Below are positions 665-55,395 of a DNA stretch of 64,000 nucleotides, one piece after another; position 1 is the first letter of the stretch; the number at the start of each line of letters is the position of its first letter. Source of the stretch: an uncultured Ruficoccus sp. Lineage in GTDB: Bacteria; Verrucomicrobiota; Verrucomicrobiia; Opitutales; Cerasicoccaceae. The notes under the pieces were generated by a model that was not told the DNA's origin, made no database searches, and was given only the letters and a program-made list of their open reading frames with translations. A program made the position numbers and the translations under genes. The stretch is taken from assembly GCA_965140785.1 (NCBI GenBank), contig OZ223473.1:3591-67590 (forward strand). Reading direction: 5' to 3'.

Positions 665-1945
665 CTACTTTCCGGCCGGGGCCAGTGTCTCAAATCCGGT
701 CCAGCGGTGCAGGATCTCGGGGACCTTGACGGTGCCGTCGGCCTGGAGGTTGTTTTCCAGGAGAGCGGCGAGGACGCGCGGGACGGCGAGGCCGGAGCCG
801 TTGAGGGTGTGGACGATCTCGGCCTTGCCGCCGCCCTTGGGACGGAAGCGGATGCCGGCGCGGCGGGCCTGAAAGTCGGTAAAGTTCGAGCAGCTGGAAA
901 CCTCCAGCCAGCGCTGCTGGCCACCGGCCCAAACCTCGAGATCGTACTGCTTGGCGTGCGGGAAGCCGATGTCCCCGGCGCACATGAGCAGGACGCGGTA
1001 CGGCAGGCCGAGCTTTTGCAAAAGGACCTCGGCATTGTCGCGCAGCAGTTCGAGCTCCTCGAAGCTCTTGTCCGGGTGGACCCACTTGACGAGCTCGACT
1101 TTGTCAAACTGATGCAGGCGGTTGAGGCCGCGCACGTGCTTGCCCCAGCTCCCGGCCTCGCGGCGGAAGCACGGGGTGTAGCCGCAGCGGTACACGGGCA
1201 GGTCGCCCTCGTCAAAGGTCTCGTCGCGGAAGAAGTTCGTCACCGGCACCTCGGCGGTCGGGATCATGTAAAAATCCTCGGTCGGCATGTGGTACATCTG
1301 CCCTTCCTTGTCGGGAAGCTGGCCGGTGGCAGTGGCGCTGGCAGCGTTGACCATGAGCGGCGGCAGGACTTCCTGATAGCCGTTGACGCAGGCCTCTTCG
1401 AGGAAATAGCTGATCAGGGCGCGCACGAGGCGGGCCATGTCGCCGACATAGAACGGAAAGCCCGCGCCCGTGGCCTTGACCCCGCGCTCAAAGTCGATCG
1501 CCTGCGCAAACCACGGGATGTCCCAGTGCGGCACGGCGTGAGTGGAGACGTCATTGGGCTCGCCCCAGGTGGCGGCCACGACGTTATCGTCCTCGGTGTG
1601 CCCGTCGGGCACGCTGGCGTCGGGCATATTCGGGATGGCGAGGAAGAGGTCCTTCCACTTGGCTTCAACCTCGTTGGCGGCGGCTTCGAGGGCCTTGACC
1701 TCCTCGGAGAGGGCCTTCATGGAGGCGAGCTTTTCCTGAAACTCGGGGGACTTTTTGTCCTTGAACTGGCCGACCTCTTTGCTGGCGGCTTTCTGCTCAG
1801 CGCGCTTGGTCTCGGCCGTGTTGATGGCGGCGCGTCGCTCCTCGTCGAGCTTGAGGATGGCGTCCCAATCGACCGTGAATTTCTTCCGGGCGATGGCCTT
1901 CTTGAGCCCCTCGGGGTCTTCGCGTAAAAGTTTGATGTCGATCAT
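665..1945 (-). CDS. serS: Serine--tRNA ligase
   Basis: N-terminal coiled coil; motifs PTAEVP, CFRREAGS, GLNRLHQFDKVE, EVSSCSN, TLNGSGLA. Start placed at MIDIK (1945). Confidence 0.97.
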   Translation of the reverse strand: MIDIKLLREDPEGLKKAIARKKFTVDWDAILKLDEERRAAINTAETKRAEQKAASKEVGQFKDKKSPEFQEKLASMKALSEEVKALEAAANEVEAKWKDLFLAIPNMPDASVPDGHTEDDNVVAATWGEPNDVSTHAVPHWDIPWFAQAIDFERGVKATGAGFPFYVGDMARLVRALISYFLEEACVNGYQEVLPPLMVNAASATATGQLPDKEGQMYHMPTEDFYMIPTAEVPVTNFFRDETFDEGDLPVYRCGYTPCFRREAGSWGKHVRGLNRLHQFDKVELVKWVHPDKSFEELELLRDNAEVLLQKLGLPYRVLLMCAGDIGFPHAKQYDLEVWAGGQQRWLEVSSCSNFTDFQARRAGIRFRPKGGGKAEIVHTLNGSGLAVPRVLAALLENNLQADGTVKVPEILHRWTGFETLAPAGK

Positions 1946-2157
1946 GGCAAAAGCAAAAGCGATCACTTTAGAACAGCCGCTCACGCGCTGGCAAACTTTT
2001 GTATCGGCCATTCGTTATTGGTCGGGGATCGCGGCGCTCCACATTGGAGGATGCATGGAGAGCCGCTCCCGGCGTTCGCCCCACTGTCGTATAATGCAAC
2101 ACGCCACGTACAAGCACGGCTTGACGCGGGTTGTTCAGTCGTTATTACTCTGGGGGC

Positions 2158-2746
2158 ATGGTTGCTGTTAATTCCACCATGCTCCCACTGGGCACGCCCG
2201 CCCCGGCCTTTCACCTGCCCGACACCCAGGGCAACACCGTCTCGCTGGAAGCCTTCGACGGAGCCAAGGCCTATGTGGTCATGTTCATCTGCAACCACTG
2301 CCCGTACGTGCGCATGCTGCGCCGCGAGATCGCCCAGCTTGCGGGCGAGTACCGGGATAAGAACGTGGCCTTTGTCGGCATCAACAGCAATGACATCGAG
2401 AACTACCCCGACGACAGCATGGACAACATGGCCCGCGAAGTCGCCGAACAGGGCTACCCTTTCCCCTACTGCCTCGACGAAACGCAGAATGTCGCCAAGG
2501 CCTACCGCGCCAACTGCACCCCGGATTTTTACGTCTTCGACCATGAGCGCATGCTGGTTTACCGGGGGCAGTTCGACGACGCCCGGCCCGGCAACGGTGT
2601 AACCGTAACGGGTTCGGACCTGCGCGCCGCCCTCGATGCCGTCCTCGACGACGAGGAAATCCCCCGACGATGTGCAAAAGCCCTCCATCGGCTGCAATAT
2701 CAAGTGGAAACCCGGCAACGAGCCCGAGTATTTCCGGAAGGCATAG
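2158..2746 (+). CDS. Thioredoxin/AhpC-TSA family protein (apparent +1 frameshift near 2661-2665)
   Basis: FICNHCPYV CxxC and CTPDFYVFD motifs. Removing one C from the C5 run restores the expected tail QKPSIGCNIKWKPGNEPEYF ending at TAG 2744-2746. Confidence 0.85.
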
Positions 2747-2804
2747 CCCTTCATCCGCCGGTGCCATTAAAAGAAATATCCTTACCGCGGACATGCCCGG
2801 GTGG

Positions 2805-2968
2805 CGTAGGGGCTCAGCCTCTGCTGTGAGGCATGTGAAGTTTCTTTGAGTTGGCGACAATCGCCGTGGCCCATGCCGCCGCGTTAGAGGCGGCATCAGT
2901 GATGCGGGAGCATCACAGGTGCAGGACTTTGTCCTGCCCCTCAATGTCGAGTGCGGTCACGCACCTAC
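2805..2968. repeat. REP/BIME-like hairpin cluster between convergent genes
   Basis: 2937-2965 is 28/29 identical to the reverse complement of 63779-63807. Stacked hairpins include GTGATGC/GCATCAC, ATGCCGCC/GGCGGCAT and GCAGGAC/GTCCTGC; CGTAGGGGC at 2805. Confidence 0.7.
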
Positions 2969-5436
2969 TTGGTTTTCATGACATAGACGCCGTCCCAGGT
3001 GTCGGGAGGCGGTGTGGTCTTCATCTCGGCGCAGCGGGCCTGCATGGCGAGGCTGGGATTGAGATGGACCCCCGCGTCGCGCCCGGGCTGGAACTGCTCC
3101 AGTTGCGCCGCTTTTTCAAACATGCCGGTGGCGGCATCCCACTCGCGACGGAAATACCGTTCGAGCGCCTGCTCGTAAATAGCGACGCACTCCAGTACCT
3201 CGGGCGGCAGCTCCGAGCGGAAACCGACCAGTTCGTACATGTGTACCGGCTGCTTGCGGCCCTTGACCTGCCACTTGTCCACGAAGCGGAAAAGCAGGTC
3301 GTCGCGCACAGCCCGGGCCTCGTTGCGGGTCTGCTCGCTGACGAGGGTATAGGCACCGGCGGACTTGGCCCCGCTCTCGCAGCGGGCGGCCAGGTTGACC
3401 GTGTCGCCCATCATGGTGTAGTTGAAGCGCGCTTCCGAGCCCATGTTGCCCACGGTGGCGTGGCCGGTGTTGAGACCGATGCGGGTGCGCATCTGCGGTA
3501 CGATCGGGGGCCACTTGTCGCCCTCGTCCGCCCACTTCTTACACAGGGCGGCCTGGCGCTGCTGGATGCGGGCGGCGGCCCGGCAGGCCTGGTAGGCATG
3601 GTGCTTGATGTGGATCGGGGCGTTGAACATGGCCACCATGGCATCGCCGATGTACTTATCGAGCGTACCGCCCTCCTCCTGCACGATGTCCGTCATGGCC
3701 GTGAGGTACTCATTCATCAGCTCGACCAGTTGGCGGGGCTCCAGGAGTTCGGAGAAACCGGAAAAACTCTGGATGTCGCTGAAAAAGGCGGTGATCGTCT
3801 CGTCCACCCCGCCCAACTGCGGCTCCTCGCCCGACTCGACCATGCGCTCAACCAGGTCCGGCGAGAGATAGGTGCCGAACATGCCCTTGATGCGGCTTTT
3901 CTGACGCTCCTCAACGAGCAGGCGGTAAACGGCGCCTGCCGTGGTGGTGGTGACAGCACAGGCCACCGGCGCGATCAACGGGATGACGAGGTGAAAACGG
4001 CTAAATGCCCAGAATACGGCCCCCACGTAGAGGCCCAGCACAACGAAGCTGGCCGACTTGTAGATCAGGCTGTGACGGCCGGTGGCGGTCCCGAGGTAGG
4101 CAACCACCGCGGTCAAGGCAAACAGGATGGCAATCTCGGCCCACCGGGGCAGCCGCTGAATGTACTGCCCGCTCATGAGCGTCTTGTAGAGGTTGCCATG
4201 GACGCTGACCTTGGGCACGGCGGTGGAGTCGAACGGCGTCGGCGCCAGGTCCTGCATGGCCTTGTCAGTGGGGCCGATCAGCACCACAGCACCCTCGAAC
4301 ATCTTGAAAAAGTCGCGGGCTTTCTGCTTGAGCTGCTCGGCATCGGGGCCGGTGGCACTTTCGAGGTTGTAGGCCTGCTCCATGATCAGTCGCACACTGG
4401 CGGCGGGATTAAGCTCGCGGTTGTCCCAACGCGAGAACCAGTTGGTTTCCACGACTTGGCCATCGATCAACGGGGCCTCGATCACAGTCTCGCCCTCCGC
4501 GTCTGTGACACTCAGCGTGTCCTCGTCGATGGAAATAGCCTCGTGGCTCAGCCCCAGCTCGATCAGGGCCAGTTCGAGCGAGAGAGCGTAAAAGGTCCGT
4601 TCCGTCTCCGCCGGGAGCGCCGCCAACTGGTTAAAATCCTTGTCGAAGACGAAAACCTTTCCATCGAATGTATCGACCAGTTCATGGGCCTCCTGAGGAC
4701 TGATCCCGAGATTGCGGTAAATGCCATCCACGAGATTGAGGGTTTCGTAGGGCCCATGGGCACGCGCGAACAGCGGCACCCAACGCGGAACCGGCCCGGC
4801 ATTGCGGACCTGGTCCATGTCGATCAGCCCGATTCCCTCCTGCCCCGGTCGCTTAATGATGGGATAAGTCGGCATCTCCGGAAACGTATCTCCGATGCCG
4901 GCCTGCGAGTCCTCTCGCAAGTAGGGAAAGAACCGGGTCTTCTCCTCAACCAGTTCGATGCTGCGGTCCTTTTTGCGGTCCTCGATGGTCAGAGGCAACA
5001 GGCTACCGCTGTAAAAAGCGGCAAACACGGTCCCCGGGTACTGTTCGGCCACCTGACCGAGCACCTGATCGTTTTGTACGATGGCTTCGTGCGAAACCAT
5101 GGTCGAGTGTGCCTGGGGCGAAAACACGAAGTCGAACCCCACAGCCTTGGCTTTGCCATACTCGAACAGCACCCGCGCTACTTGCGCGTATTGTTCCCGC
5201 GGAAAGGGACGCTCGCCCCAGTAGTCGGTGGTGGCCGCGTCCACATTCGCGTAAACGACATCGGCCTCGGGCACGGCCATTTCCCCCCGCACCTGGAAAC
5301 GCCAGTCCATGGCGAGGTTTTCCAGCGGCTTGAAAATCGGCTGCAAGGGTTCCCACTCGCTCAACGCCAGCCAGAGGATCACGACCGGTGCCATGATCAG
5401 GGCGAGTGTAAAATTACTGGCGCGGGGGGATGACAT
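2965..5436 (-). CDS. CHASE2-domain class III adenylate/guanylate cyclase
   Basis: N-terminal TM, CHASE2 (VGFDFVF, PRWVPL), three TMs, then cyclase motifs FFSDIQSFS, DKYIGDA, YTMMGDTVNLAARCES. Confidence 0.92.
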   Translation of the reverse strand: MSSPRASNFTLALIMAPVVILWLALSEWEPLQPIFKPLENLAMDWRFQVRGEMAVPEADVVYANVDAATTDYWGERPFPREQYAQVARVLFEYGKAKAVGFDFVFSPQAHSTMVSHEAIVQNDQVLGQVAEQYPGTVFAAFYSGSLLPLTIEDRKKDRSIELVEEKTRFFPYLREDSQAGIGDTFPEMPTYPIIKRPGQEGIGLIDMDQVRNAGPVPRWVPLFARAHGPYETLNLVDGIYRNLGISPQEAHELVDTFDGKVFVFDKDFNQLAALPAETERTFYALSLELALIELGLSHEAISIDEDTLSVTDAEGETVIEAPLIDGQVVETNWFSRWDNRELNPAASVRLIMEQAYNLESATGPDAEQLKQKARDFFKMFEGAVVLIGPTDKAMQDLAPTPFDSTAVPKVSVHGNLYKTLMSGQYIQRLPRWAEIAILFALTAVVAYLGTATGRHSLIYKSASFVVLGLYVGAVFWAFSRFHLVIPLIAPVACAVTTTTAGAVYRLLVEERQKSRIKGMFGTYLSPDLVERMVESGEEPQLGGVDETITAFFSDIQSFSGFSELLEPRQLVELMNEYLTAMTDIVQEEGGTLDKYIGDAMVAMFNAPIHIKHHAYQACRAAARIQQRQAALCKKWADEGDKWPPIVPQMRTRIGLNTGHATVGNMGSEARFNYTMMGDTVNLAARCESGAKSAGAYTLVSEQTRNEARAVRDDLLFRFVDKWQVKGRKQPVHMYELVGFRSELPPEVLECVAIYEQALERYFRREWDAATGMFEKAAQLEQFQPGRDAGVHLNPSLAMQARCAEMKTTPPPDTWDGVYVMKTK

Positions 5437-5466
5437 AGCCGAAATGACCGATCACCAATCGCAAAC

Positions 5467-5796
5467 TTACTTTTTGGCCTCCTGGCCTTCGGGTGTCTTC
5501 ACCAGGTGGAGGACGCGCATGCTGGCGCCTTCCCCTTGATTGGGGGTGACCGCGGGCAAGGCTGCCAGCGGCAGTGGCGGAGGCTGGTAGCGGAATAGAT
5601 TGGCCAGTTTGACATCCGGCCCCATGGCCTTGGAGCGAACGACCTCCGCCTGTTCGTTAGAAGCGGCGGATTCCGGGGACGCAGGAGAAGCTGCTGGCCG
5701 GGCGTCCGGCTTGCTTTCGTCCGCCGCTTGCAACAGGGCCGCGAGAGCGAAGTTCAGGACCAAGACACACAGACAGGTGGAGAAAAAAGATTTCAT
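5467..5796 (-). CDS. Hypothetical secreted protein
   Basis: Signal-peptide-like N-terminus; sits co-directionally between two minus-strand genes; no recognisable domain. Confidence 0.45.
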   Translation of the reverse strand: MKSFFSTCLCVLVLNFALAALLQAADESKPDARPAASPASPESAASNEQAEVVRSKAMGPDVKLANLFRYQPPPLPLAALPAVTPNQGEGASMRVLHLVKTPEGQEAKK

Positions 5797-5802
5797 CGTG
5801 GC

Positions 5803-7781
5803 TCAGGGGATGAGGATTTTCATGCGCAGGCTCTGAGCGGCGGCCTCTTCGGGCTTGAGCTCCAGCGAACGGTCAATGGCCACCAGGGCTTGATCGCGGG
5901 TGGCCGGGTTAATATTGAGATAGGAAGAGAGATAGTACCAGGCGATGGGGTTGTTGGGCGCGACTTCGGTCGCCCGCCGGTAGGCCTCGCCGCTGCCGAC
6001 ATAGTCGCCGCGCATCCACCTGGCCGTCCCCAGGGCGATCCAGGCCTCCATATAGTCCGGGCTGATCGCCAGTGCCTGATCGGCCTCCTTCTCGGCCTCC
6101 GCGCCGTACTCTTCGTGTCGGGAGGGATACTCGAAGCTCTGGCTCAGGATCGCTTTGGCCAGATTCGTCCGCAGGCGCGGGTTGTCCGGGTCGGCCTCAA
6201 CCGCTTCCCGGCAGAAGAACAGCATGTCTTCCAGGGTGTGCTCCTCCTGCGTCTCGCGCTCCCGCAGCGCGGCGGAGGCTTTCTCAAGCTGGCGCTCTCC
6301 TTCGAAGGCGTAGGCCTGCCCCAGCAGGTACTGGCTCGAAACGCTCAGCAGCGCCACCGTGACCACCACGGCAGCTCCGACACAGCCCAACCCCGCGAGT
6401 TTACCCGCCTTCACCGTGTACACGTGAGTCGGCAGGCATTTGACCATGATAGCCAGATAGACCGCCACGATGAACAGCAGGGCCGGCACGCGCAGGTTGA
6501 ACTCGAAAAACAGTTGAAGGCCGAAGGCGAAAAAGGCCATCAGGATGGCCATCAGGAACATGCGCTTGTTCGGGACCACTTTGCGCTTGGCCGGGTGCTC
6601 AAGCAGGACGAATTGCGGCTGGGTGCTCAGCCCGCGGGCGGCCTGGACAACCATCCAGATCACCGGAAGGATAAAGACAACCCCCAGCAGGCCGAAGTCA
6701 CTCAGGAAATTCAGATAGGCGCTATGGGCATAGACCGGGTCGTAGTTGAAGCCCTCGGGGCGGCGCAGTTCAAAGAACCATCCGTAACTGCTCATCCCCT
6801 GCCCCAGAAACGGATGGGCCAGGAAGTTCTTGAACGCGGCCAGCCAGAGCGCCGGACGCGGGTCGCTGAAGTCGCCCTTGAGCAGCGCGTCGATGGTCTG
6901 CTCAAAGCCGGACTTGGAGAAATACAGGTAGGCCATGCCTGTCACCGGAATCAGCAGCGCACACAGGAAGGCATACATTTTCCACTGCGGGCGCGTAGCC
7001 AGCAGAAACGGGCATAATAGCAGTCCGCCCGTCATTGCCAACAGCGCCGGCAGACTCTGCGTCAGGGTCAGTGCGCACATCGCCAACAAGGCCAGAAAAA
7101 AGCAGAAGAAGCGGATCGGCGGGTTGAGGCGGCGGCAGAACGCCCCCACCAACAGCGGGCTCAAGATCAAGAGCATCAGGCCCGCGAAAGCCGACGGCGA
7201 GCCCATCGTGCCGGCGGCACGCCCCAAAAAGGCAGAGGCCAGCTTCAGTTGATACGAGCCACCGTCCAAGGGATTCACCACGGCCGGGGACCAGTTGGAC
7301 TGGCGCATGGTCTGGTTAAAGGCGGACAGAATCGTCAAAGCTGAGTAAAAACAAATAATCGCCAACAGCAGCCACACATGCTGGCGTTTGCGCAGGTTGT
7401 GAACCGCCACCCAGAAAAGAATAAACGCTTCCAGAATCAGGATAAAATCCCTCTGAGCCTCCCACCCGACCGGCGAAAGTACCAGCCACTGCAAAAGGGC
7501 GTACGCCAGGAACGGAACCAGCAGAAGGGCGTTTTTCTGAAACGTATAGACCCCGTTCTGAGGACTGATCGCAAACCAAATCCCGTGGAGCATCAAGAGT
7601 CCGCCACACATCCACGCCGTCACCACCTGTGTCTCGGCGCGAACCCCGCCCATCTGCCAGATATTGAAGCACAGAATAGCCCCCATCGTGAGCGTGATTA
7701 ACCAGTCGAGCAGATTGCTCAGCGTCAGCTCCCAATCAGAAAGACCCGGAACTGTAAGGTTTTTTTCTTATGGCGAGGCAT
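5803..7781 (-). CDS. O-antigen ligase (Wzy_C)-family membrane protein with C-terminal TPRs (probable 1-bp deletion at T7 run 7760-7766)
   Basis: Many TMs, GRAAGTMGSPSAFAG, HPFLGQG, AHSAYLNFLSDFG, TPR tail. Adding one A joins MPRHKK (ATG 7781) to the track ORF that starts at 7686. Confidence 0.8.
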
Positions 7782-7884
7782 GGGCAGGGAGACCGAAAAG
7801 GCTTGAAAAGAGCTTCCACTAACGGGAATTATCAGTAACGGGCAAACATAAACTGCCCACCGAAACCTTAACCCATCCGAGACC

Positions 7885-9293
7885 ATGACTCCGAAGGAAG
7901 TTCTCGCTCTGGCCAAAGCCAAAGACGTCAAGATCGTCGATCTTAAATTTTGCGACATTCACGGAAGCTGGCAGCACTTTGCCGTTCCCGTTACCGAATT
8001 AAACGAAGACCTGTTCGAGGACGGACTCGGTTTCGACGGCTCCTCCATCCGCGGATGGCAGGGTATCGAGGCCTCGGACATGCTCGTCATGCCCGATGCG
8101 GCCACGGCCTTCATCGATCCTTTTGTCGAGGTGCCACGCTTAGTATCGTCTGCGACATCGAGGACCCGATCACCCGTGAGCCTTACAGCCGCTCGCCACG
8201 CGGCGTGGCCAAGAAGGCCGAGGAGTACCTGCAATCCACCGGACTGGCCGACACCGCCTACTTCGGCCCGGAGGCGGAGTTCTTCATCTTCGAGGATGTG
8301 CGCTACAACAGCGGTTCGAACGAGTCCTTCTACGCCGTCGATTCGGTCGAGGGTATCTGGAACACCGGACGGGAGGAGTTCCCCAATCAGGCCTACAAGA
8401 TCCGTCACAAGGAAGGCTACCTGCCGGTCTCCCCGCTGGACAAACACATGGACCTGCGCAACGAAATGGTCCTGACCATGCAGGAGTTGGGCCTCACCGT
8501 GGAGGCGCAGCACCACGAAGTCGCCACCGGCGGCCAGGCCGAGATCGACCTGCGCTTTGACACGCTGCTGAAGATGGCCGACCACATGTGCATCTACAAG
8601 TACGTGGTCAAGAACGTCGCCTACCGCTCCGGCAAGACTGCCACCTTCATGCCGAAACCCCTTTTCGGCGACAACGGCTCGGGCATGCACACCCACCAGT
8701 CGCTGTGGAAGAAGGGTAAGCCCCTCATGGCCGGCGACGGCTACGCCAACCTCTCCCAGATGGGGCTGTGGTACATCGGCGGCCTGCTCAAACACGCCCC
8801 GGCCCTGTGCGCCTTCTGCAACCCGACCAACAACTCCTACAAGCGGCTCGTGCCGGGCTACGAGGCGCCCGTGACCCTCGCCTACTCGGCCCGCAACCGT
8901 TCGGCCATCTGCCGCATCCCCATGTACAGCTCCAGCCCGAAGGCCACCCGCGTCGAGTTCCGCTGCCCGGACCCCTCGGCCAATCCCTATCTGGCCTTTG
9001 CCGCTCTGCTCATGGCCGGACTCGATGGGATTGAGAACAAGATCGACCCGGGCTCGCCGGTGGATAAGAACCTTTACGACTTGCCACCCGAGGAAGCCGC
9101 CAAGCTTTCTTACGTGCCCGACAGCCTGCGCGGTTCACTCGAAGCTCTGCGCGACGACCACGAGTTCCTGCTCAAGGGCGAGGTCTTCACCGAGGATTTT
9201 ATCCAGAACTACATCAAGCTCAAGATGGCCGAGTACGACGAGATCCGCCTGCGCCCCCATCCGCACGAATACTCGCTGTATTTCGACGTGTAG
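7885..9293 (+). CDS. glnA: Glutamine synthetase type I (apparent 1-bp deletion near 8134)
   Basis: [62 protein letters not shown]. The two overlapping ORFs join as EVPTLSIVCD. Confidence 0.97.
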
Positions 9294-32031: not shown

Positions 32032-32253
32032 ATGTCTAAAGAAAACGTTGAAAAACTCCTGATGGACGGTTGGACCGACAAAAAGTTGCGCGCCAAGTAC
32101 AACGTCATCGAAACCAAAGAAGACTTCGTCGCCTCGGCCAATGCCGATGGCTACGCCTTTACCCAGGAGGAGCTCGACGCGGTGCTCAAAGAGGAGGAGC
32201 TGGACTTCGAGTCCTCGGGCAACCCCCGCTCCCGCGCCATCTGGCTGCACTAG
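32032..32253 (+). CDS. Nif11-like leader peptide family protein
   Basis: MSKENVEKLL...LRAKY...TKEDFVASANADGYAFTQEEL follows the Nif11 pattern. Confidence 0.8.
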   Translation: MSKENVEKLLMDGWTDKKLRAKYNVIETKEDFVASANADGYAFTQEELDAVLKEEELDFESSGNPRSRAIWLH

Positions 32254-32328: not shown

Positions 32329-32655
32329 TCACTCCAGTAGTCGGCGCAGGAGTTGCTTTTCCTCCGGGCTGCGGTGACGGATGAGTTCGCCCATCTGGGC
32401 CAGGAACTCGTCCGGCTCGTAATTGGCGGTGCGCAACAGGTACAGGAGCACGCCGTCGCGGTGGATGAGGTAGCGGTGGCGCTTTTCGTGGCGCAGCCCG
32501 GCTCGGCCGTTGGCAGTGTGGCCGAGGATTTTCTGGTTCAGGAAGCAGTCGCGCACGAACTGGTCGGTCTTACCGATGACGGCGGCAACCTCCTTCGGGC
32601 TGAACCAGGTCTGGTCCGGCGGCAGCAGCCGCTCAAAGTGGGAGTTCAGTTTCAC
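32329..32655 (-). CDS. Excisionase-like helix-turn-helix DNA-binding protein
   Basis: WFSPKEVAAVIGKTDQFVRD resembles HTH_17/Xis; 108 aa. Confidence 0.6.
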   Translation of the reverse strand: MKLNSHFERLLPPDQTWFSPKEVAAVIGKTDQFVRDCFLNQKILGHTANGRAGLRHEKRHRYLIHRDGVLLYLLRTANYEPDEFLAQMGELIRHRSPEEKQLLRRLLE

Positions 32656-32670: not shown

Positions 32671-33006
32671 TCAGAGGCTGCGCGAGAATTTGTTCAGGGG
32701 CCGGCGCTTGCGGCGGGCATCGCGGTAGCCACGCTGGTAGGCGTCACGCCGGGCCTGCTCAACAGCATCGCCAATGCGTTCGCGGATACGCTCGGCCATC
32801 ATCTCGGCGTGGAAGACATCGCAGCAAAAGACTTTGGCGTAGGCCTGCCAGGTCTTGCCGCTGCGCAGGGGCAGCCCGGTGTCGATAACGATCTCGGCGG
32901 CGCGCCCGTCGGGCTGCACGCGCAGGAGGAACTTCTGCTCCTCGGGCGACCCGGCAAGGTTGGCAGGAGTGGTGGAAACACGTGGAAAATAATGCGTGGT
33001 GGTCAT
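32671..33006 (-). CDS. Hypothetical protein, phage-like
   Basis: Co-oriented in a tight operon; helical C-terminus ARRDAYQRGYRDARRK; no function recognised. Confidence 0.55.
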   Translation of the reverse strand: MTTTHYFPRVSTTPANLAGSPEEQKFLLRVQPDGRAAEIVIDTGLPLRSGKTWQAYAKVFCCDVFHAEMMAERIRERIGDAVEQARRDAYQRGYRDARRKRRPLNKFSRSL

Positions 33007-33055: not shown

Positions 33056-33253
33056 TCAGCGGTTGGCAGCGGGTGCCGTGTCCGGCGTTGAGGCGTCGAG
33101 GTAGCCCTCGCTGTGCAGGTGTTTTTTCAGGGCGCAGGCGACGAGACTGGAGACCGAACGGTTGTCGTCGAAGGCCGCCTGCCGGGCGACCTCACGTAAC
33201 TGCGGCGGCAGGCTGACTGAGACATTGACAGTGGTGGTGTTTTTCATTTTCAT
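33056..33253 (-). CDS. Ribbon-helix-helix (Arc/CopG-like) regulator
   Basis: VNVSVSLPPQLREVARQAA-FDD-NRSVSSLVACALKKHL: alternating beta strand followed by two helices. Confidence 0.75.
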   Translation of the reverse strand: MKMKNTTTVNVSVSLPPQLREVARQAAFDDNRSVSSLVACALKKHLHSEGYLDASTPDTAPAANR

Positions 33254-33369
33254 AGTGAACACATGATCACCTCAAAACCTGTCCGTCACAAGATATTTTT
33301 CTAGAATTTATTATTTTACTATTATTTACTATTCCCTTCCTTCCATCAACCACTTACCCTCCTTCCACC

Positions 33370-33996
33370 ATGTCAGACGATCAAAGACACAAAACCGTGG
33401 GCGTGAGCTTTCCGCCAGAACTGCGCCAACGTGCCGCTGAGCGGGCCCGCGGCCTGGGCCTGTCCTTCTCCAAGTATGTCACGCTCTGCGTTGAGGCCGA
33501 GGTGGGCGGCAAGCCGCCGCAACTGGTGATGGAAAACCTGCTCCCGACTGGGACCGCCCCACTGAACCTGGAAGCGGCAGTGGAAGAAGGCTCCGACTAC
33601 GGCGCGATGAAGGCCGCCTCGATCGGCTTCGAGGACGACGTGGAGGAGATCCTCAATCAGGAGGATATCTGCTACAACCGTTTCGCTCAGGTCGCACACC
33701 TGCGAACGGATTTTCTCATCCAGCACGTGGACCCCTCCTCCGGAAAAACCCTCCGCATCGCGCTGGAGTGTAAGTATAACGTACGCAACCGCGCCACTGT
33801 CACCCTCGGCCAGTGCATTATCCTCAAAAGCCTGCCCGGCGTGGATGCGGTCATGCTCTGTGTCCCCTACCTCAAGCACTTCGACCCGCATCTGCGCGAG
33901 ACCTTCGCCCAGCAGGACATTCCGGTGGTGACGCCGGACACCCTCAGTCCCGGCCTGGAGGCGCTTTTGGCCGAGCGGGCGGAGGCCGAAGCCTGA
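33370..33996 (+). CDS. RHH domain fused to a PD-(D/E)XK nuclease-like domain
   Basis: KTVGVSFPPELRQRAAERARGLGLSFSKYV (RHH), then FEDDVEEIL, RTDFLI, IALECKY, TLGQC (motifs I-IV). Confidence 0.7.
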   Translation: MSDDQRHKTVGVSFPPELRQRAAERARGLGLSFSKYVTLCVEAEVGGKPPQLVMENLLPTGTAPLNLEAAVEEGSDYGAMKAASIGFEDDVEEILNQEDICYNRFAQVAHLRTDFLIQHVDPSSGKTLRIALECKYNVRNRATVTLGQCIILKSLPGVDAVMLCVPYLKHFDPHLRETFAQQDIPVVTPDTLSPGLEALLAERAEAEA

Positions 33997-34046: not shown

Positions 34047-34484
34047 TTACTGACCACCGCTGGTCGTGCCCTGCGCATAAAAGAGGAAGAACAACGGGAT
34101 GGCGATAATCAACACGAGCACCAGGCTGAACGCGGTAACGATGAGGTTGACCAGCAGGCCCTTGACAAAGCCGATGGGCTCATGGCGGCGGGTGAACCAG
34201 ATGCCGAACAGGTACGAGTTCAACAGCAGCCACAGGAGAATGCCGGTCGGGGTGGTTGCATAGACCAGAACCGGTTTCAGTTGGACCAACTGACCGAGCA
34301 GAATGTTGATCGCGAACCCGATCAGCGTGACCTTGAATACGATTCCATAGGCCTTGCCATAGCCGGTCATATGCCGGGTCACGATTTTCATCGCCCATTG
34401 GGCAAAAACAGCCGTGATCAAGCACAGGAACGCGCACATCCCGACTCCGATCAACAGAGCAAAAATTAATCCTATAGCTTCCAT
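34047..34484 (-). CDS. Hypothetical 4-TM membrane protein
   Basis: Four hydrophobic segments; lower GC; no family recognised. Confidence 0.6.
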   Translation of the reverse strand: MEAIGLIFALLIGVGMCAFLCLITAVFAQWAMKIVTRHMTGYGKAYGIVFKVTLIGFAINILLGQLVQLKPVLVYATTPTGILLWLLLNSYLFGIWFTRRHEPIGFVKGLLVNLIVTAFSLVLVLIIAIPLFFLFYAQGTTSGGQ

Positions 34485-55319: not shown

Positions 55320-55395
55320 TGGAGCCATCCATCGGATTCGAACCGACGACCTGCTCATTACGAGTGAGCTGCTCTACCAACTGAGCTAGGATGGC
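55320..55395 (-). tRNA. tRNA-Thr(CGT)
   Basis: 76-nt cloverleaf GCCATCC...GCTCA-CT-CGT-AA-TGAGC...GGTTCGAATCC...CCA. Confidence 0.97.

Follow-up and report, generated by a model that had tools for sequence, protein, structure and literature searches.

A ribbon-helix-helix protein fused to a PD-(D/E)XK nuclease fold, a candidate repressor in a divergent two-promoter cassette of Opitutales

We analysed a 64,000-nucleotide stretch of DNA (hereafter the window) from an uncultured Ruficoccus sp. of the order Opitutales (assembly GCA_965140785.1, contig OZ223473.1, positions 3,591 to 67,590), and we focus here on a gene at positions 33370–33996 of its forward strand. The 208-residue product joins a DNA-binding domain of the ribbon-helix-helix (RHH)-like type to a domain with the PD-(D/E)XK fold of restriction endonucleases. 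We propose, with odds of roughly one in two, that this fusion protein is the long repressor, comparable to Mnt or CI, of an orphan, immunity-type, integrase-less bidirectional switch, and that its nuclease domain is probably still catalytic. We read it in this way because the anatomy of the cassette that contains the gene matches that of an immunity-type switch, the closest analogue being immI of phage P22. The repressor reading is favoured by the architecture of the cassette, by overlapping predicted promoters with an operator-like repeat, and by distant relatives with an XRE-type DNA-binding domain that stand at the position of CI in prophages. An original prediction, made from the letters of the sequence, had offered three options, namely a repressor with a nuclease fold, a nuclease toxin or defence effector, and a site-targeted nickase; the same evidence favours the first of these, and the other two gained no support.

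Domain structure of the fusion protein

The gene begins with ATG and is supported by its open reading frame (ORF), its orthologs, their alignment and an AlphaFold2 (AF2) model. A homolog search returned 32 orthologs with identities of 49–92%, and the alignment holds 33 sequences. A large ORF on the opposite strand (33373–33891) is a shadow frame of high-GC DNA; homologs were found for the forward frame only. Against three orthologs, at dS values of 0.6–1.0, dN/dS was 0.04–0.06 for the RHH domain, 0.05–0.09 for the nuclease domain and 0.08–0.11 for the whole gene. The conservation of homologs, together with ratios of 0.04–0.09 in both domains, means that the ORF is a real, constrained gene and not a chance frame, and by this estimate both domains are under strong purifying selection.

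The C-terminal domain (residues 67–188, encoded at 33568–33933 on the forward strand) is well supported as a PD-(D/E)XK nuclease fold by its modelled topology, Foldseek comparison and conservation. The AF2 model, built on the ortholog alignment, has a mean predicted local distance difference test score (pLDDT) of 88, rising to 92–98 in the nuclease part. That part consists of a helix (67–97), three strands (102–108, 111–120 and 127–134), a second helix (142–154) and a last strand (160–164), which is the alpha-beta-beta-beta-alpha-beta order of the PD-(D/E)XK core; the linker to the RHH domain is poorly ordered. The first helix carries E88 and the second strand D114, and the third strand ends with E133 and K135; all of these positions are typical of the superfamily. 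The domain also has G147-Q148 and the CVPY motif (164–167). Foldseek searches of the PDB retrieved XisH (2inb), NucS/EndoMS (2vld), Ecl18kI, Can2, PaqCI and BamHI at borderline E-values (1e-3 to 1e-1) and probabilities of 0.9–1.0, together with Cdn1, MspJI and HamA, and the best matches (E < 0.08) were nearly all PD-(D/E)XK nucleases. Searches of BFVD gave endonuclease I, restriction endonucleases, DUF2726, DUF559 and Mrr, with E-values down to 3.5e-5, as well as a phage “HTH_XRE domain containing protein” that aligned along its entire length. A restriction-endonuclease-like fold in this half of the protein had been predicted, and both the AF2 topology and Foldseek (PDB and BFVD) bear it out. 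Relatives of the fusion protein also gave sub-threshold Pfam matches to REase_MTES_1575 (E 2.5e-4) and, in one relative, Mrr_cat (E 0.048), and the family profile matched PspGI, likewise below threshold, at E 0.12. A sequence search of the PDB with the single protein returned chance matches only.

The four motifs that had been quoted as signs of an intact active site, FEDDVEE (residues 87–93), RTDFLI (112–117), LECKY (132–136) and TLGQC (145–149), are all present in the translation as described. E88, D90, R104, R112, D114, E133, C134, G147 and Q148 are invariant in all 33 sequences, and position 135 is lysine in 30 of the 33 (arginine, alanine and serine once each), which agrees with the claim of an intact catalytic set. 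Because the acidic triad and the lysine are invariant or nearly so in the RHH subfamily and in the prophage XRE subfamily described below, their conservation suggests that the domain is probably still a Mg2+-dependent nuclease and more than a scaffold. Candidate substrates would be incoming DNA of related phages, damaged DNA serving as an induction signal, or the protein’s own operator.

The invariance of E88, D90, D114 and E133, the near-invariance of K135, the retention of D, E and K in the XRE subfamily and a dN/dS in the nuclease domain as low as that of the RHH domain all speak against the idea that the protein is purely a transcription factor and its nuclease fold catalytically dead, in which case the PD-(D/E)XK domain would only oligomerise or bind a ligand and its conserved acidic residues would bind a metal or an effector. 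This alternative, which we regard as decidedly unlikely, can nevertheless point to the family as a whole, where the most conserved columns are structural (F87, F115, G147, V161, V165, P166 and Y167), where several distant members lack one or more of E88, D114, E133 and K135, and where the ExK lysine varies outside the core group (R, Q, T, H, C, A or S). It can also point to MrpR of SPbeta, a phage repressor that reuses the fold of an enzyme, in that case a recombinase-like one (PMC10516654).

The N-terminal domain (residues 9–46, 33394–33507 on the forward strand) consists of a putative strand, KTVGVSF, and helices at 16–28 and 33–46, and is recognised from weak profile matches, the model and conservation. 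Pfam gave no RHH match for the window’s protein, and the NCBIfam model YlcI_YnfO_N matched residues 9–45 at E 0.003 with 17.5 bits, below its curated cut-off of 30. AF2 places both helices after the conserved KTVGVSF with a pLDDT of 86–88 and leaves the strand unassigned in the monomer model, while H7, K8, T9, G11, V12 and S13 are near-invariant in the ortholog alignment. When the N-terminal profile was compared with PDB sequences, the best matches were MazE6, a CopG-family protein and ORF56, all of the RHH type (E 0.15–1.4), and relatives of the fusion protein gave weak matches to NikA-like (relaxosome RHH), CopG_antitoxin and CcdA models. These lines are individually weak but concordant, and they support an RHH domain, though less firmly than the nuclease fold is supported. 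Pfam, PHROGs and PADLOC returned no match at all to the fusion protein, and the sub-threshold RHH-type match was the only one in NCBIfam. As no curated family in these four collections covers the fusion, and as a literature search found no description of an RHH or XRE helix-turn-helix (HTH) repressor fused to a restriction-endonuclease-like domain, the family does appear to be unnamed, as had been suggested.

The divergent cassette and its control region

At the 30-odd loci examined, the fusion gene is divergent from a small Arc-like RHH gene, an optional gene that we call orf111 and an HTH_17/excisionase (Xis)-like gene, and this layout is also kept by relatives with 40% and 34% identity (L026 and L027). 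The small RHH gene (33056–33253, reverse strand) encodes about 65 residues from an ATG at 33253; the mechanical ORF begins at a GTG at 33262, and we set the start at the residues MK by N-terminal alignment. Its matches to Pfam RHH_5 (E 2.8e-4) and to phrog_582, “Arc-like repressor” (E 2.5e-4), confirm it as the divergent small RHH gene of the original prediction. It adjoins the control region in most cassette loci and is missing from L018. As a view of the partnership that prediction was right about the small RHH gene and incomplete otherwise, since the conserved unit is a cassette of three to four genes in which the constant partner is the HTH_17-like gene, unnoticed at the time. In a joint alignment, the RHH domain of the fusion protein and the small RHH protein share 43% identity over 28 residues of the strand-helix part, and both read xVSxxPxLR, a likeness that fits two repressors sharing operators.

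The divergent control region (33263–33369) is a 107-bp AT-rich spacer whose architecture is kept in orthologous loci. A scan of 2.4 kb for sigma-70-like consensus sites found only two, both of them in this spacer. The predicted rightward promoter (33285–33314, forward strand), directed toward the fusion gene, has a -35 box GTCACA (33285–33290), which reads TTGACAAG in five orthologous loci and as related variants in others, and a -10 box TATTAT (33309–33314). The predicted leftward promoter (33321–33349, reverse strand) has a -35 box TTGATG (33349–33344) and a -10 box AATAAT (33326–33321). Its -35 lies inside a conserved box, CATCAACCACTTA (33344–33356), that is present in most orthologous loci, and across the spacers of these loci it is contained in the conserved CATCAAYNACTTA box. 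The predicted promoters are arranged face to face and their -10 boxes adjoin, so that a polymerase at one should exclude a polymerase at the other. Their start sites are predicted near 33321 (forward strand) and 33314 (reverse strand).

Both -10 boxes are spanned by a tandem A/T-rich repeat, TATTTTAC TATTATTTAC TATT (33312–33333), with TTTAC boxes 10 bp apart, which we consider a candidate RHH operator. When spacers were extracted from 19 loci and compared, the repeat was found to be kept down to the most distant RHH-type relatives (34% protein identity). The 4.36-Mb assembly holds no second copy of this 22-nt repeat, even when 3 mismatches are allowed, and its binder should therefore act locally. 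Two 15-mer near-matches inside coding sequence were rejected as regulon candidates and attributed to chance. One of these falls on C41, a 20-kb AT-rich contig of the assembly (G000) with genes, around 1665–8667, that look by eye like efflux pumps; the contig departs in composition from the remainder of the assembly (61% GC) and may be bin contamination.

Other features of the spacer and its surroundings were also recorded. An imperfect palindrome, GTGAAC-ACAT-GATCAC (33255–33270), lies directly upstream of the start codon of the small RHH gene, and its GTGAAC half-site is kept in nearly all orthologous loci, even in L018, which lacks that gene; it could be a second operator, perhaps for the HTH_17-like protein, or a translation signal. 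In two families (L013, about 1100–1500, and L015, about 2160–2550) some 250–300 nt of C/T-rich repeats of the CATCC/CAGCATCC type lengthen the fusion gene’s leader between the control region and the start codon; the window has no such repeats. The local cumulative GC skew peaks at the spacer, but we rejected a replication origin or terminus there, as skew follows the coding strand throughout the window: C exceeds G on the sense strand, and divergent gene pairs thus mimic the signal of an origin or terminus.

The two remaining genes of the cassette are less easily classified. The optional orf111 (32671–33006, reverse strand), between the small RHH and HTH_17-like genes, is present in about two-thirds of the loci and occurs solely inside the cassette. 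Its family has 27 invariant columns (QPDGRxAE..DTG..LR.GK.W.A.AKV.C), a homolog search returned 8 close relatives only, and AF2 predicts a three-stranded sheet with a long helix at a moderate pLDDT of 68. No structural neighbour was significant, the best having E-values of 0.37–0.5 and including a Pur-alpha-like match. The HTH_17/excisionase-like gene (32329–32655, reverse strand) matches Pfam HTH_17 at E 0.14 in the window and also weakly in its L003 ortholog, and is present in every locus where the contig extends far enough.

The HTH_17-like family itself is wider than the cassette, with members in 66 of 151 Opitutales genomes, including streamlined genomes of 0.8–1.0 Mb. The window’s own genome carries a core paralog with 57% identity (G000:C4:78620-78922; positions 5082–5423 of locus L028). 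Core copies such as this one (L028–L031) are invariably divergent from an XRE-HTH protein of 150–180 residues without a nuclease domain, with a helical ORF of about 85 residues upstream, and the two genes appear to be an uncharacterised regulatory pair conserved in Opitutales. The operator of the cassette is absent from this core pair, and cross-regulation with the cassette through that site is therefore improbable. The cassette thus reuses a layout typical of the lineage, a repressor gene facing an HTH_17 gene, without sharing the operator.

Prophage relatives and comparison with known switches

In distant relatives of the fusion protein, whose nuclease domains show 23–33% identity, the place of the RHH domain is taken by an XRE/Cro-C1 HTH domain (Pfam HTH_3 at E-values as good as 5.6e-15). 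These proteins combine HTH_3 or HTH_31 with the same nuclease fold, match PADLOC models only via the HTH, and gave no match to Peptidase_S24; the D, E and K of the D..ExK motif are conserved among them. In an unrooted tree of the nuclease domain the XRE forms lie on one side of a single branch (support 87/97), which points to one swap between RHH and XRE domains. Three independent XRE loci share one layout, in which host genes are followed by an integrase and a single small gene; next comes the XRE-nuclease gene and then a long operon in divergent orientation. The integrase matches phrog_1 (E 1.1e-10) and our own tyrosine-recombinase hidden Markov model (E 3.7e-8), and in L025 a C-terminal fragment of it is present. 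The first gene of the divergent operon is an HTH_17 gene, which at 28.5 bits exceeds the Pfam cut-off; it is followed by a RecT (E 6.8e-58) or ExoVIII-like gene (E 7.4e-52) and by genes for a replication initiator, a DnaC-like loader, a sigma factor and an N6/N4 methyltransferase. This gene content is that of a temperate-phage early region, with the XRE-nuclease protein standing at the position of CI. A further XRE-nuclease paralog in another Opitutales genome (L023, 1228–3299) has a context unlike these prophage loci: it is followed, with a 4-nt overlap, by a gene for a 468-residue protein that by eye is AlbA_2/Schlafen-like with a C-terminal winged HTH.

In immI of phage P22, overlapping promoters drive transcription of two genes in opposite directions, one for Mnt (an RHH protein with a C-terminal tetramerisation domain) and one for Arc (a minimal RHH protein whose gene heads the ant operon). 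The cassette likewise has two divergent RHH genes with overlapping predicted promoters, the smaller one Arc-like and at the head of its operon and the other with an extra C-terminal domain, although sequence similarity to Arc and Mnt is below threshold. The extra domain here is, in contrast to that of Mnt, a full PD-(D/E)XK fold with catalytic residues, orf111 and the HTH_17-like gene are unrelated to Ant (no match to an antirepressor PHROG or Pfam family), and the cassette is chromosomal, integrase-less and outside any phage. The resemblance to CI and Cro of phage lambda comes through the XRE members, which lie between an integrase and a divergent early operon with an Xis-like HTH_17 gene, RecT or ExoVIII and replication genes, and the RHH version keeps this divergent layout. 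Unlike lambda CI, these proteins have a C-terminal nuclease fold rather than an S24 peptidase or CI oligomerisation domain, and the window’s protein has an RHH and not an HTH domain and no prophage around it.

Among nucleases, Mrr of the type IV systems, REase_MTES_1575 and the type II enzymes Ecl18kI and PspGI have the same fold and order of motifs, with a DNA-binding domain followed by the nuclease. The fusion protein differs from them in having no match at curated thresholds, in targeting DNA with an RHH domain, in lacking a methyltransferase or restriction context, and in being embedded in a transcriptional switch. It is not a member of the Mrr family, as the window’s protein has no Mrr_cat match and its N-terminus is RHH-like rather than a winged-helix Mrr_N. 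PutA and NikR show that repression by an RHH protein can be modulated through a catalytic or ligand-binding domain joined to the RHH domain. These two proteins and MrpR of SPbeta are analogies only; their folds differ and they are not homologous to the fusion protein. In temperate phages a repressor is normally a DNA binder with an oligomerisation or self-cleavage domain attached. Immunity switches are familiar, and so are nucleases that carry an added DNA-binding domain; what appears to be new here is the fusion of an RHH or XRE domain at a repressor position with a PD-(D/E)XK domain.

If the fusion protein is a repressor of this kind, its RHH dimers would bind the TTTAC-type repeats 10 bp apart, and the nuclease-fold domain would, like the C-terminal domain of Mnt, at the least bring two such dimers together in a higher-order complex. 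The complex would shut the leftward promoter and autoregulate the rightward one, and the small RHH protein, with its related DNA-reading strand, may act as an Arc- or Cro-like counter-repressor. The chromosomal RHH version looks like a long-resident orphan module of the immunity type, kept by selection in some Opitutales lineages.

Several points weigh against the repressor reading. The argument from the position of CI comes by analogy from XRE relatives whose nuclease domains are only 23–33% identical, and a shared position does not amount to a shared function. The predicted promoters and the candidate operator are drawn from consensus and conservation, and apart from orf111 and the HTH_17-like gene no cargo of the proposed switch is evident. 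A pure repressor needs no invariant catalytic set, which leaves part of the function unexplained; conversely, the distant members without one or another catalytic residue mean that catalysis is not a family-wide property, and the structural character of the most conserved columns cautions against over-reading the active site.

A bolder possibility is operator-guided restriction, in which, within a prophage or as an orphan chromosomal cassette, the DNA-binding domain would recognise the operator repeats of incoming related temperate phages and the PD-(D/E)XK domain would cut them. Superinfection immunity would then come from destruction of the invader, the resident operator being spared, for instance, by the geometry of its occupancy or by the partners in the cassette. 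In a sister version, the nuclease fold would sense DNA ends or single-stranded DNA and so provide an induction signal independent of RecA. We consider this pair of ideas improbable.

Chromosomal setting, range and significance

The cassette of the window lies among rlmN, cysS, tmk, holB and thrS, with no defence island, and no prophage was found around it. Its synteny is stable at the genus level and its flanks differ by genus, with rlmN and cysS in the window’s genus and other housekeeping genes elsewhere. No tyrosine recombinase was found on the window’s 86-kb contig or in the 1.5–5 kb flanks of the RHH-type loci, and there is no tRNA gene near the cassette, the sole one in the window being at 55320. 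The GC content of the cassette genes agrees with that of the genome. With its conserved layout, genome-like GC content and the absence of a recombinase or tRNA gene nearby, the cassette appears to be a long-resident, integrase-less chromosomal module.

Two neighbours accompany the cassette in the window’s genus. At 32032–32253, on the forward strand and convergent with the cassette, lies a gene for a Nif11-family leader peptide (Pfam Nif11, E 2.3e-13; TIGR03798, E 3e-9), which is kept beside the cassette within the genus (90% identity in L001 and L008), with no maturase seen nearby. On the other side, at 34047–34484 on the reverse strand, a gene for a 145-residue multi-pass membrane protein without a family match adjoins the fusion gene in this genus only. 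Its identity is 58–65% in L001 and L035 and 49% in L008; in L009 and L036 it stands on the other side of the cassette, and elsewhere it is not part of it.

The family is small. An exhaustive phmmer search of 1.84 billion representative proteins gave 35 clusters at E <= 1e-3, and among 185,579 species, each represented by a single genome, 16 loci were found, all in the order Opitutales (Verrucomicrobiota), from Cerasicoccus species and from metagenome-assembled genomes labelled Opitutales or Puniceicoccaceae. The homolog search added Ruficoccus amylovorans and Rubellicoccus peritrichatus as named carriers. The full-length fusion gene is present in 15 of 151 Opitutales genomes, always in single copy, and in all sampled genomes of the window’s genus and its sister genus. 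IMG/VR, scanned with the RHH-type (A1) and XRE-type (A5) alignments, contained no relatives, and tblastn found no match of protein P0065 in isolated phage genomes and none of the window’s protein in PLSDB plasmids.

This distribution bears on the possibility that the fusion protein is an autoregulated nuclease toxin or an anti-phage effector (abortive-infection- or restriction-like), in which the PD-(D/E)XK domain would be the active part, the RHH domain would serve only for autoregulation, and one of the divergent small proteins (the small RHH protein, orf111 or the HTH_17-like protein) would be an antidote or a trigger sensor. The intact and strongly conserved catalytic residues suit such a role, as do the small, self-contained form of the cassette, its patchiness within the order and the defence nucleases among the structural neighbours (Can2, Cap4, HamA and MspJI); PD-(D/E)XK and RHH are also among the commonest domains of newly validated defence systems (PMC13092281). 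However, PADLOC-DB 2.0 had no match for any of the four cassette proteins, and no toxin–antitoxin (TA), Pfam or PADLOC family matched orf111, the HTH_17-like protein or the nuclease domain. The cassette also sits outside defence islands, in single copy and in stable genus-level synteny in all sampled genomes of two genera, it was absent from the searches of plasmids, isolated phages and IMG/VR, and 35 clusters in 1.8 billion proteins is extremely rare for a TA or defence family. In type II TA systems the two functions are encoded as a co-directional antitoxin-toxin pair, whereas here RHH and nuclease form one polypeptide, the partners are divergent and no recognised toxin family is involved. 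We therefore hold a role in toxicity or defence to be unlikely.

A second alternative is that the RHH domain tethers the nuclease to a specific site that it nicks or cuts, jointly with the Xis-like HTH_17 protein, so that excision, transfer or replication of a DNA element begins. Its analogues would be excision factors of the XisH type and the PD-(D/E)XK (MOBC-type) relaxases. The best structural match of the nuclease domain in the PDB is in fact XisH (PF08814; 2inb and 2okf, TM-score 0.55 on the target, probability 1.0), annotated as “fdxN element excision controlling factor” and connected in the literature, too, with excision control. In addition, the constant partner resembles an excisionase, and relatives show the weak NikA-like matches noted above. 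Identity to XisH is nevertheless only 15–16%, neither the fusion protein nor its neighbours match Pfam XisH or XisI (at E up to 1 for XisH in the fusion protein), there is no XisI neighbour, and XisH has no fused DNA-binding domain. Moreover, no recombinase, relaxase partner, conjugation gene, repeat boundary or tRNA gene flanks the cassette, the only operator-like site in the genome is the cassette’s own promoter, and genus-level synteny is not a sign of mobility. Such a nickase or recombination accessory is, in our judgement, very improbable.

The family is very rare and restricted to one lineage, which limits its general impact, and its function is read from context. If the proposal is correct, a protein at the repressor position with an active nuclease would link immunity by repression with immunity by cleavage, which are usually separate, and a repressor-nuclease of this type could reveal a new way of sensing induction signals. 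The cassette offers a proposed two-promoter switch that is small and self-contained and for which a 22-bp operator candidate is defined, and cultured hosts are available, namely Cerasicoccus arenae KCTC 12870, C. maritimus, C. frondis, Ruficoccus amylovorans and Rubellicoccus peritrichatus. The chromosomal RHH version would indicate that such a module can persist without a phage, under strong purifying selection, in a little-studied phylum.

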